Of a stretch of 64,000 nucleotides of DNA, positions 44,280 to 61,666 are shown piece after piece (within the stretch, counting starts at the first letter, position 1; each line of letters begins with the position of its first letter). Under the pieces are notes generated by a model. That model worked only from the letters and a program-made list of their open reading frames with translations, did not search any database and was not told where the DNA came from. The stretch is from an uncultured virus (IMG/VR IMGVR_UViG_3300031802_000001) (taxonomy: Duplodnaviria > Heunggongvirae > Uroviricota > Caudoviricetes). A program made the translations under genes and the position numbers. The stretch lies in IMG/VR virus record IMGVR_UViG_3300031802_000001; one strand, written 5' to 3'.

Positions 44280-44288
44280 GGGTGGGCC

Positions 44289-44321
44289 AAAAAAAATAGC
44301 GGCGGTTTTACCCGCCACTAT
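44289..44321 (-). terminator. Rho-independent terminator of hsp20
   Basis: ATAGTGGCGG-loop-CCGCCGCTAT followed by a T tract. Confidence 0.85.
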
Positions 44322-44335
44322 CTATGTCTATGTTA

Positions 44336-44785
44336 TTATTTAACTTGTATTGTTTTAAGTTTCTTTTCTTCTGGAATAATCTTCTCCATAGAAACTCTTA
44401 ACAGACCATCTTTCAGTTCTGCACCTGTGACATTTACATCATTGGCGATTGTGAAAGACCGTTTGAACATCCTTTTAGATATTCCTCTATAAAGAGTACC
44501 GTCATTGTCTTCTACCTCTTTTTCAGCCTCGTCTTTAACTGATTCGATAGTCAACATACCATCCTCTACATTTACATTAATGTCTTTTTTATTAAAGCCA
44601 GCTAATGCTACTTCAATATCGTAAGTATTCTTACCAGACTTAACTATATTGTATGGTGGGTAAGACGGTTGTATATCGGATATAAAATCGTCATCAAACA
44701 TTGATTGAAAATTATCAAACATTGAATCGAATCCAACCGATATTGGTCTTAACCTGTTAAAAATAGATAATGCTTTATTGGTCAT
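44336..44785 (-). CDS. hsp20: Small heat-shock protein (IbpA-like)
   Basis: YPPYNI, IEVALAGF, YRGISKRMFKRSF and AELKDGLL. Confidence 0.95.
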   Translation of the reverse strand: MTNKALSIFNRLRPISVGFDSMFDNFQSMFDDDFISDIQPSYPPYNIVKSGKNTYDIEVALAGFNKKDINVNVEDGMLTIESVKDEAEKEVEDNDGTLYRGISKRMFKRSFTIANDVNVTGAELKDGLLRVSMEKIIPEEKKLKTIQVK

Positions 44786-44843
44786 AAAAACCTCCTTTAT
44801 TAAGCAAAGTTATCTTTTTGTGAGCCCTTAATGGCACTCACTG
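44786..44843 (-). promoter_or_regulatory. ROSE-like RNA thermometer in the hsp20 5' UTR
   Basis: Hairpin GTGAGTGCC/GGGCTCAC, then CTTTGCTT-AATA-AAGGAG, placing UUGCU opposite the SD. Confidence 0.65.
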
Positions 44844-44851
44844 CACTACTT

Positions 44852-44879
44852 ATATATGTATTAATTTACAATATACAAG
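44852..44879 (-). promoter_or_regulatory. RpoH-like promoter
   Basis: CTTG-N17-CATATAT, resembling alphaproteobacterial sigma32 promoters. Confidence 0.5.
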
Positions 44880-45121
44880 TAGCGCTGGTAATTTTATTTT
44901 AGAGAGTTTGAAATTACCAAAATTTCTCCTCTTGAAGCAGCCCTAGGCAAAAACTAGGTAATCCACTTGGGTCGTAGGTTTTAGAGTCTCCCCAAACTCC
45001 TACAAAACTCTTAATTCATTGAGGTTTTGTTAAAGTAGACCTCAAACTACTACCAATTTTGATAAATTAATATCGGGATTGGCTATCCCTTCCACGCCCC
45101 AGGTCTTATGAATTGCCTGGT
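44880..45121 (-). ncRNA. Candidate structured non-coding RNA
   Basis: No ORF in the track, more GC-rich than its flanks, multiple hairpins and potential pseudoknots; AATAAATA late-like motif at 45128-45135. Confidence 0.55.
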
Positions 45122-45166
45122 ATAGTATATTTATTATCAAAGCACAGGCAAGGAATTGCATAAATT

Positions 45167-45370
45167 CTATATTCTATCTTGTATTAACTTCTGTTTCTTT
45201 TTCCAGTTCTTAATACCTTCTTTTTTCTTTTCACGTTTAATGAAAGATGGTTTTCTGTAATATTGTTTTTCTCTATATTCTTTCAATATGCCAGCTTTAA
45301 GTACTTTCTTTTTAAGCACTCTCATTGCCTTCTCTACATTACCGCCTCTTACTTCTACTGTTATTGTCAT
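45167..45370 (-). CDS. rpsU: 30S ribosomal protein S21 homologue
   Basis: VEKAMRVLKKK...GILKEYREKQYYRKPS. Confidence 0.88.
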   Translation of the reverse strand: MTITVEVRGGNVEKAMRVLKKKVLKAGILKEYREKQYYRKPSFIKREKKKEGIKNWKKKQKLIQDRI

Positions 45371-45612
45371 ATTTTATTACTATATTGTGTACCACATCTT
45401 TGACAAATACCCCACGCTGGAATGTGTGGTGTATTATCTAAACATTTGCTACATAAAATATACTTTCCTTCTTTTAAAAAATCTACATTTCCTGAATTAT
45501 ACTCTTCCTTACTTGGATGAGCCTCTTCTAATTTCTTCTCAATATCTGTAACTTTTCTAATCAAAAGTTTAATATCTTCTTTAAGCTCTCTAACAATATA
45601 TTGTTCTATCAC
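45367..45612 (-). CDS. Hypothetical protein with Zn ribbon
   Basis: CSKC...CQRC. Confidence 0.55.
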   Translation of the reverse strand: MIEQYIVRELKEDIKLLIRKVTDIEKKLEEAHPSKEEYNSGNVDFLKEGKYILCSKCLDNTPHIPAWGICQRCGTQYSNKI

Positions 45613-61658: not shown

Positions 61659-61666
61659 TATTTATA
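61659..61666 (-). promoter_or_regulatory. Late promoter
   Basis: TATAAATA. Confidence 0.75.

Follow-up and report, generated by a model that had tools for sequence, protein, structure and literature searches.

The question raised by this locus is what occupies the 381-nt gap between two minus-strand phage genes, rpsU (45167–45370) and hsp20 (44336–44785). The 64,000-nt stretch of DNA analysed here, called the window throughout, comes from a pelagimyophage, a T4-like phage infecting SAR11 bacteria, whose closest named relatives are the Pelagibacter phages Mosig EXVC030M and HTVC008M. In the sea, SAR11 bacteria rank among the most numerous cells. Of all carriers of a ribosomal protein encoded by a virus, their T4-like phages are known best. 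The initial annotation had placed in the gap a free-standing transcript of about 240 nt starting at 45121, with tandem pseudoknots and perhaps related to S21 or the ribosome, or serving as a protein sponge or defence decoy. A conserved RNA with tandem pseudoknots was indeed borne out, by compensatory changes for most of its stems in related phage DNA. Its extent is a different one: the RNA is about 270 nt long and spans 45155–44886, from the region of the S21 stop codon to just before the hsp20 promoter, since its closing helix P1 pairs past the boundary at 45121. It is the 3′ continuation of the phage rpsU message, beginning at the S21 stop and ending before the next promoter, and it represents a new, uncatalogued family of multi-pseudoknot RNAs.

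Architecture of the RNA and its surroundings

The upstream gene, rpsU, encodes the phage ribosomal protein bS21 (67 aa; stop codon TAG at 45169–45167), and its start overlaps the stop of the ORF upstream according to the ORF list. A syntenic S21 is annotated in Mosig EXVC030M and in HTVC008M. On the other side, hsp20 encodes a small heat-shock protein of 149 aa and is the usual, non-obligatory downstream neighbor of the element. It is preceded by a promoter-like site (CTTGTA, 17 nt, TATATAAGT; 44844–44879, minus strand) that lies outside the RNA family; a −35-like box and a TATA(T/A)AAT box were kept at the same spacing before hsp20 in loci that otherwise differed, and a scan for late promoter boxes listed TATATAA at 44856. 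A 14-bp inverted repeat at 44884–44843 was considered as part of the RNA and rejected: its two arms coincide with the −35-like and −10-like boxes of this promoter, and other clades keep the boxes, not the complementarity. Between the RNA and its start codon, hsp20 has a short leader hairpin of its own. TTGCT (44807–44803) lies a few bases 5′ of AGGAGG (44796–44791). In ROSE-type RNA thermometers U(U/C)GCU stands opposite the ribosome-binding site; no ROSE family was retrieved for the hsp20 leader in an Rfam search of 44700–45300, even at E ≤ 10.

All stems that had been listed initially were present on the minus strand, each at its given place. The RNA opens with the 5′ strand of helix P1 (TTCCTTGCC, 45147–45155), which begins 11 nt past the S21 stop and pairs with the 3′ strand (GGCGTGGAA, 45090–45098) with one U-U mismatch in the window copy. 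P1 encloses an AT-rich junction, J1 (45121–45146), which holds AATAAATA (45134–45127) and has a core, ATA(A/T)ATA, that was nearly invariant in 132 unique sequences. Then follows hairpin H1 (45099–45120), with the stem CCAGG/CCTGG and a conserved 12-nt loop CAATTCATAAGA (45115–45104); the P1 3′ strand lies directly 3′ of it. The H1 stem was invariant in the window clade, and four of its five pairs covaried in the wider family, where CTAGG/CCTAG, GTAGG/CCTAC, ACAAGG/CCTTGT and others occur beside CCAGG/CCTGG. The loop motif YCRTAAR was kept in 272 of 273 S21 loci, and a hairpin of this kind is unique on the minus strand of the window. A resemblance of the H1 loop with its joiner to the 3′ end of 16S rRNA was considered and dropped; the Rfam searches of the window and of 44700–45300 gave no small-subunit rRNA match to the element. 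We also discarded a pairing between the H1 loop and ATGAATT, 3′ of knot B: one subclade had lost it by deletion and another had mismatches.

Downstream of P1 runs a series of H-type pseudoknots, four of which (A to D) are backed by covariation. Pseudoknot A (45052–45089) combines hairpin H2, GGG at 45089–45087 with CCC at 45077–45075, and a pairing of its loop, GCCAAT at 45083–45078, with ATTGGT at 45057–45052. For the stem first described as GGGAT/ATCCC, the GGG/CCC core persisted, with two of three pairs changing on both sides in the wider family, but the full five-pair stem did not. The loop pairing is an additional pseudoknot, absent from the initial annotation and lying outside the search model; all five of its pairs changed on both sides, with the variants CCAAT/ATTGG, CCAGT/ACTGG, CCAGC/GCTGG, CCAAC/GTTGG and GCTTG/CAAGC. 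Hairpin H3 (45074–45061) sits inside pseudoknot A and likewise showed both-side changes in five of five pairs in the family alignment.

Pseudoknot B (45019–45051) is of the H-type and has an A-rich third loop. Its S1, AGTAG at 45051–45047 with CTACT at 45038–45034, was 100% paired in the window clade with two of five pairs changed on both sides, and in the family, where it lies outside the model, four of six pairs changed in this way. S2, TTGAGGT at 45045–45039 with ACCTCAA at 45025–45019, was invariant in the window clade, whereas across the wider family 7/7 pairs showed changes on both sides. In pseudoknot C (44974–45011), stem a pairs AGAGTTTT (45011–45004) with GAGACTCT (44990–44983); its inner six pairs were invariant, which is neutral evidence, and the outer two were not kept. 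Stem b, GTAGG at 45003–44999 with CCTAC at 44978–44974, was 100% paired in the window clade, two of its five pairs having changed on both sides and one on one side. Between C and D lies a variable region (44942–44971) in which other clades carry a GNRA-capped or another hairpin instead. Two pairings assigned to this part did not hold generally and belong to the window's own subclade: CCCAA (44971–44967) with TTGGG (44995–44991) forms in only 6–7 of 24 sequences, one of the five pairs being a wobble in the rest, and the hairpin CCTAG (44958–44954)/CTAGG (44946–44942) forms in only 6–7 of the 14 sequences not gapped at this spot (the other 10 of 24 are).

The terminal pseudoknot D (44886–44930) is again H-type, with a U-rich first and an A-rich third loop, and ends directly before the hsp20 promoter. 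The proposed pairing of AGAGGAG with CTCTCT was retained as S1 in the register 44930–44926 with 44906–44902 (two of five pairs changed on both sides, 91% paired). S2, TGGTAATTT at 44919–44911 with AAATTACCA at 44894–44886, was 98% paired in the window clade and five of its nine pairs changed on both sides. A family-wide finder detected a D-like knot within the 75 nt preceding the next promoter in 56/99 sequences vs 143/990 shuffles (34/99 vs 17/990 at a stricter score), with 43 distinct stem combinations; the 43 tails of 99 that it missed were lost partly through the crude promoter-based cut. A scan for intrinsic terminators returned only the H2 hairpin (45089–45075), inside the RNA, and neither a U-tract nor a terminator was found after the last knot.

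The view that the RNA belongs to no known family was upheld. With Rfam 15 (4227 models) the whole 64-kb window gave no match at the gathering threshold. At E ≤ 10, 44700–45300 gave four chance-level matches, the best of 21.2 bits vs a threshold of 90, and 12 loci with long relatives gave only three tRNA matches elsewhere and one noise match. The element is not a tRNA either, as had been stated: ARAGORN was negative for it in the window and in 18 related loci, with no tRNA or tmRNA in the window and no tmRNA in the 18 loci. A tmRNA or tRNA-like gene was rejected on this result together with the lack of a conserved tag frame among the 26 closest sequences and the presence of more than 200 nt of RNA after the P1 3′ strand. 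A description of the RNA was not found in the literature on pelagimyophages, on pelagiphage noncoding RNA or pseudoknots, or on S21-linked RNA motifs. The pelagimyophage survey (PMC7029224), the isolation paper of Mosig and Kolga (PMC8163748) and a study of ribosomal proteins encoded by viruses (PMC6375957) do not mention it in the portions of their text that were covered.

Covariation, strand and the closing helix

Searches with the hsp20 protein led to 80 viral loci, about 21 of which had a full-length homologue of the gap at 65–99% identity. An invariant block of 30–31 nt, used as an exact pattern, occurred in 27 stretches of viral contigs and in 96 of metagenome contigs (80 of the 96 were taken). 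Loci bearing the block numbered 146 in all, 111 of them with enough flank and 66 unique; L141, a GC-rich chimera, was omitted from later sets. The alignment of the window clade was made with plain MAFFT, was not fitted to structure and held 26 sequences (24 distinct). When the listed structure with its pseudoknots was laid on it, 89% of the cells paired, vs 36–50% with the partners slid, and none of 500 shuffles reached the covariation score. A covariance model of the 5′ domain (R1), built from seven seeds, found all 65 loci searched. In its alignment of 46 distinct rows 92% of the cells paired, 23 of 31 pairs changed on both sides and, again, 0/500 shuffles reached the score. Two pairings outside R1, the one of the knot B upstream strand and the one of the GGG/CCC hairpin loop with ATTGG, covaried too, and they did so in an alignment that had not been fitted to them.

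Since compensatory base changes occurred in relatives for most stems, the element is a genuine structured RNA on the minus strand. Many kept G-U pairs, which would be A-C mismatches in the opposite orientation, assign it firmly to the strand that also carries rpsU and hsp20; they are found, for example, in columns 117/135, 119/133 and 209/242 of the window-clade alignment and in P1 columns 21/107 and 27/102 of the P1-H1 alignment. Folding of the single sequence was only suggestive and not decisive: the 242 nt of the minus strand gave z = −1.71, with 12 of 200 shuffles folding equally well, the plus strand z = −3.39 and the whole 381-nt gap z = −3.78.

The closing helix P1 became visible in distant S21 loci. 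There the 12-nt loop of H1 was kept, the H1 stem varied, and the stretch 3′ of H1 was always complementary to 8–10 nt after the S21 stop, as can be seen by eye in the raw sequences. A covariance model of P1 and H1 (R2), built from 132 unique sequences, matched 99 of 100 S21 loci at E < 1e-3; the 100 had been picked from 116 unique loci by removing 16 near-duplicates of the commonest types, which made room for divergent ones. In the resulting alignment (99 distinct rows), which was fitted to the model and is so biased towards the structure, nine of nine P1 pairs and four of five H1 pairs changed on both sides, 91% of the cells paired (P1 alone 88%) vs 33–62% with slid partners, and 0/500 shuffles reached the score. 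We used this model-fitted alignment because the one made with MAFFT misplaces the P1 3′ strand, the H1 stems varying in length. Partner variants of P1 include GGCGTGGAG/TTCCATGCC, GGTATAGA/TCTATGCC, GCGTAGAAA/TTTCTACGC, GGTGTAAA/TTTACACC and CGTTGGAGG/TTTCCAACG, among others. The 5′ strand begins 0–5 nt past the S21 stop in 85 of 99 loci, within a full range of 0–13 nt. P1 was preferred to a long-range closing stem of GGCGT (45097–45094 region) with GCGCT after the last knot, which was invariant in the window clade and lacked its partner in other clades.

As P1 uses the nucleotides after the S21 stop, the promoter-like block lies inside the fold, and at least one functional form of the RNA is continuous with the S21 message. 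The promoter-like motifs that had been noticed just upstream of the element do exist as an AT-rich block, and AATAAATA could be a late promoter, but the block is part of the folded RNA and is enclosed by P1. AATAAATA sits 6–7 nt before H1 and is one base off TATAAATA, which we take to be the late promoter box of T4-like phages. TATAAATA occurs nine times on the minus strand of the window, and seven of the nine occurrences fall into the 8% of the window outside ORFs, 13–72 nt before gene starts. In other clades TATATATATTA replaces the J1 box. A scan for sigma-70-type promoters in J1 scored TTGCCT-16-TATACT at 9/12. J1 is therefore possibly also a promoter, and if its box is used, a shorter late form starting at H1 and devoid of the P1 5′ strand could exist.

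Linkage to S21 and distribution of the modules

In all 143 loci with enough flank, which had been found by sequence alone, tblastn placed S21 upstream of the element. For hsp20, 90 of 100 loci had the gene downstream within 481 nt, nine had none within 1030 nt and one had it at 1527 nt. The latter arrangement is that of Mosig EXVC030M, where the RNA stays with S21 and a 323-aa ORF lies between RNA and hsp20. Viewed from the protein side, an H1-type hairpin followed S21 in 272/273 phage loci, 270 of these hairpins lying 40–139 nt from where the protein match ends. For 54 additional S21 loci R1 gave 46 matches at E ≤ 1 and 31 at E ≤ 0.01, all on the S21 strand. The supposed relation to S21 is thus upheld by a strict genomic linkage, and judged by gene context it is S21, rather than hsp20, to which the RNA is tied. 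Since every member stems from a single phage lineage, the strictness of the linkage could partly reflect shared descent.

Some loci depart from the common arrangement. In HTVC008M and one relative a 111-aa ORF lies between S21 and the RNA; HTVC008M retains only H1-like hairpins and the terminal knot after this extra ORF, and its relative retains P1 (E 3.7e-6). The P1-H1 module was not found at the S21 genes of Pseudomonas phage PA5oct, Salicola phage SCTP-2 and the Pelagibacter siphovirus Kolga; in PA5oct the next gene begins 2 nt past S21. Since the S21 genes of PA5oct and SCTP-2 lack it, the module is not required by every phage S21. Nor was a credible R1 match found at 58 rpsU loci of a genome collection, none of them from SAR11, where the two weak matches were one in a phage-like contig of a binned genome (E 0.47) and one off-site (E 0.66).

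The family is modular and ranges from about 150 to about 480 nt. Its ends are P1-J1-H1 on the one side and the terminal H-type knot before the next promoter-like site on the other, with optional modules between them. One of these, which we call module C, consists of a closing stem and a hairpin, the hairpin loop AGACC being paired with GGTCT upstream. Pseudoknot C of the window shares its topology and a similar loop core with this longer module of relatives and looks like a reduced copy of it. Module C occurred in 41 distinct combinations of its two helices, and three of five hairpin pairs changed on both sides; a U-A pair of its pseudoknot was replaced by C-G in 4 of 64 sequences, and the closing stem is under-counted in the covariation as its register shifts by one column between groups. 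In Kolga it lies 260 nt after S21, behind a 69-aa ORF. A scan with an exact 14-mer of module C returned 120 loci, with the whole module in 65 and an S21 match in only 15. On contigs without S21 it starts at the stop of a homologous ORF of about 68 aa or of other genes, often before a TTGACA-type promoter. R2 matched 16 of the first 80 of these 120 loci, and all 16 carry S21 and/or hsp20. This confinement indicates that the 5′ module is specific to S21, whereas module C is not.

Parts of the stretch were also found in 12 runs recorded as RNA. In four metatranscriptome runs contigs cover the element together with hsp20 (44288–45093, 44348–44982, 44661–45168), and one contig from these runs covers the 5′ part of S21. 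No contig of the four runs bridges the S21 ORF and the element, 45169–45307 being uncovered, a gap that proves nothing. Assembled contigs reveal neither ends, strand nor level, and DNA carry-over is possible; they show presence in RNA libraries, nothing more. One contig ends at 45168, at the S21 stop, a single low-depth record to which we gave no weight.

Possible roles of the RNA

Our preferred reading, held tentatively and built on gene context and on analogy with known systems, is a composite element: the RNA would be a cis partner of phage S21, through protein binding or through sensing of translation termination, fused to pseudoknots that form the 3′ end. The 5′ module (P1-J1-H1) would act in cis with S21 in one of two ways. 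It may bind freshly synthesised S21, itself an RNA-binding protein, so as to give feedback or build an S21-RNA particle, or it may sense ribosomes finishing S21. A terminating ribosome covers a distance that reaches the P1 5′ strand, and each round of S21 translation would therefore have to open P1. The conserved H1 loop and J1 would be the candidate protein contacts. Pseudoknots A to D could serve as a compact, nuclease-resistant 3′ body closing the transcription unit, and the downstream knots, like module C elsewhere, would probably shape or protect the 3′ end.

Pseudoknotted sites bound by a message's own ribosomal protein are familiar from autoregulation, as in the rpsO leader with S15 and the alpha-operon leader with S4. 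The phage element shares with them pseudoknots in the message of a ribosomal protein, but these sites precede or span the ribosome-binding site of the regulated gene, whereas the phage element lies 3′ of the ORF and starts from the stop codon. A parallel as to the protein is OLE, a large structured non-coding RNA that bS21 binds at a specific helix, according to the parts of the reports considered (PMC12054373; PMC12286853, preprint 10.1101/2024.12.08.627333). In the part of PMC12054373 considered, this helix imitates a Shine-Dalgarno/anti-Shine-Dalgarno duplex with fixed G-C pairs. OLE of Bacillota is likewise a highly structured non-coding RNA tied to bS21 and offers a precedent for bS21 binding an RNA besides 16S rRNA; it differs, as far as the part of that report goes (PMC12054373), in being about 600 nt long, cellular and working with OapA/B/C, and the phage RNA has no Rfam match and a tie to S21 that is genomic only. 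Among the stems of the phage family we did not find a conserved imitation of the OLE helix: a GGAG-containing P1 and GAGG/CCTC-type stems occur in some clades, where they covary freely, and are replaced in others.

The strongest competitor, which we consider possible and less probable than the composite, is a generic 3′-end element that terminates, processes or protects the upstream message, by blocking exonucleases or insulating one transcription unit from the next, without being linked specifically to the S21 protein. A start at the stop codon and an end at the next promoter are what such an element would show, and module C is placed in the same manner after unrelated small ORFs and before TTGACA-type promoters in phages that lack S21. 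A U-rich first and an A-rich third loop are a design found in very stable H-type knots, and the terminal knot follows it. A simple block, however, would not need sequence conservation in a 12-nt loop and a junction, and P1-J1-H1 was found only adjoining S21. Such an element is missing from the other genes of the window, and no U-tract terminator follows the last knot.

The composite can also be taken a step further, to pelagimyophages that provide their own ribosomal protein with a dedicated RNA partner. The knotted 3′ domain of the S21 message would capture nascent S21, and the resulting RNA-protein particle, or the RNA on S21, would dock at the mRNA-exit side of the host ribosome and bias translation towards phage messages. 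We regard this as unlikely.

A small chance of being correct is also given to a free-standing small RNA, which would be transcribed from the late-promoter-like box in J1, start with H1 at about 45121 and act in trans, its target being the ribosome, a protein of the host or a defence system. The position of AATAAATA before H1 fits this idea, as does the strong enrichment of TATAAATA before genes in the window phage; H1 would then serve as a protective 5′-terminal hairpin and the conserved loops could be binding sites. The covariation of P1, however, needs a strand upstream of the box within the functional RNA, and the clades that carry TATATATATTA do without the box.

Still less probable, in our estimate, is that the element forms the upstream module of a long hsp20 leader regulating the heat-shock gene. 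Such a role would agree with the presence of hsp20 downstream in 90/100 loci, with the contigs from RNA libraries that bridge the two and with the lack of a recognisable terminator between them. The gene nevertheless retains its own promoter-like site and short leader hairpin, the closing helix of the element draws on sequence at the S21 stop, and in the ten loci where hsp20 is missing within 1030 nt (nine) or stands 1527 nt away behind an ORF (one), S21 is always there. That the gap holds no RNA element at all, only a small protein gene or DNA-level signals, can practically be dismissed: a 39-aa ORF (45042–45161) overlaps the region and the Mosig record annotates two tiny CDS (hypothetical proteins) over its copy, but the longest ORF falls into 12 place/frame classes among the 26 closest sequences, the 39-aa ORF is not kept, indels do not come in threes, and compensatory changes with G-U pairs fit RNA pairing and not coding or DNA sites.

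Several other structured RNAs invite comparison. RNA viruses carry pseudoknot arrays in their 3′ UTRs, such as the upstream pseudoknot domain and tRNA-like end of tobamoviruses and the exonuclease-resistant RNAs of flaviviruses. The phage element resembles them in its string of H-type pseudoknots right after a stop codon, and its stack of P1 on H1 has the strand order of the acceptor/T-arm stack of tRNA. Unlike them, it stems from a DNA phage of bacteria, has no CCA end and continues 3′ of P1; homology is not to be expected. With tmRNA, which phages also encode at times, it shares a succession of H-type pseudoknots and a connection with translation, but it has neither an ARAGORN or Rfam match nor a conserved tag frame, and its P1 3′ strand is not the end of the RNA. 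ROOL and GOLLD are, in the parts of the reports considered (PMC12286853; 10.1101/2024.12.08.627333), likewise phage-encoded, pseudoknot-rich and of unknown function; in contrast to them, the S21-linked RNA, without an Rfam match, is much smaller and fixed behind S21 rather than near tRNA islands.

In conclusion, phage S21 has a conserved neighbor that is invisible to gene-based annotation, and this neighbor offers a testable handle on the control or delivery of the protein. After OLE, it may be a second non-ribosomal RNA with which bS21 works. With four or more pseudoknots in a compact natural array, it also lends itself to structural work, and the widespread, separate module C is a reason for re-examining the 3′ ends of phage operons. 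If the reading of a particle with captured S21 were true, the RNA would be a phage-encoded RNA accessory of the ribosome.

Module C and copies of the RNA in relatives

Module C, an optional pseudoknotted module of the structured RNA, looks like a separate RNA family in its own right. It spans 75-130 nt, is pseudoknotted and keeps the cores CATTGGTCTT, GTTAG.ATAAT and GGGTGAGACCTACC. We located it in phage Kolga (L344, 1366-1480), in Mosig EXVC030M (L001, 1607-1687) and in loci L347-L466, and it was widespread among viral contigs without S21. There it frequently starts at the stop codon of an ORF of ~68 aa, a homologue of Kolga gp47, and is often followed downstream by a TTGACA-type promoter. 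An Rfam search of the loci holding module C returned no match.

The copy of the structured RNA in Mosig EXVC030M wholly contains two hypothetical CDSs, Mosig_00015 (39 aa, 1526-1645) and Mosig_00014 (38 aa, 1658-1774), which are probably mis-annotations. In HTVC008M (L002) a 111-aa ORF (2501-2836), also found in L273, has been inserted and separates S21 from the RNA. After this ORF, HTVC008M carries a tandem pair of hairpins, whose loops are H1-like (CTCGTAAAT), as well as a terminal pseudoknot; P1, the helix that starts just after the S21 stop codon, is absent from this copy. Metagenome record L141, where very G+C-rich sequence replaces the element after about 45 nt, is a probable assembly chimera, and the alignments leave it out.

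Leader and promoter-like site of hsp20

The short hsp20 leader (window 44841-44791, minus strand) opens with a conserved 5' hairpin, GTGAGTGCC...GGCTCAC, the stem of which covaries across loci. A TTGCT lies a few bases upstream of the AGGAGG ribosome-binding site, an arrangement reminiscent of ROSE-type heat-shock RNA thermometers; none of the ROSE models matched the leader even at E <= 10. The two boxes of the hsp20 promoter, -35-like and -10-like (44843-44884, minus strand), are mutually complementary in the window's clade and could pair there as an RNA hairpin of 12 contiguous pairs. Other clades retain the boxes without the complementarity between them.

Promoter-like sites elsewhere in the window

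A likely late-promoter box of this phage is TATAAATA, present in nine copies on the minus strand. Seven of them (at 61666, 44273, 28351, 26956, 18384, 18006 and 11084) fall in the non-ORF part of the window, which makes up 8% of it, and sit 13-72 nt upstream of gene starts. A good sigma-70-type site, TTGTCA-16-TATAGT (10 of 12; 45379-45406, minus strand), lies directly upstream of the S21 start. The S21 start and the stop of the 81-aa ORF before it overlap, so that S21 has almost no 5' leader.

Gene neighbourhoods of phage S21

The jumbo phages PA5oct (L345) and SCTP-2 (L346) both carry a ClpX-like gene directly upstream of S21, and in SCTP-2 a ClpS-like gene comes next after S21; here phage S21 has a different neighbourhood, one of proteostasis type. 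In some relatives tRNA genes occur 0.5-0.9 kb 3' of the element (L110, 965-1117; L177, 1946-2016), so that a translation-related neighbourhood can arise from S21, the structured RNA and tRNAs together.
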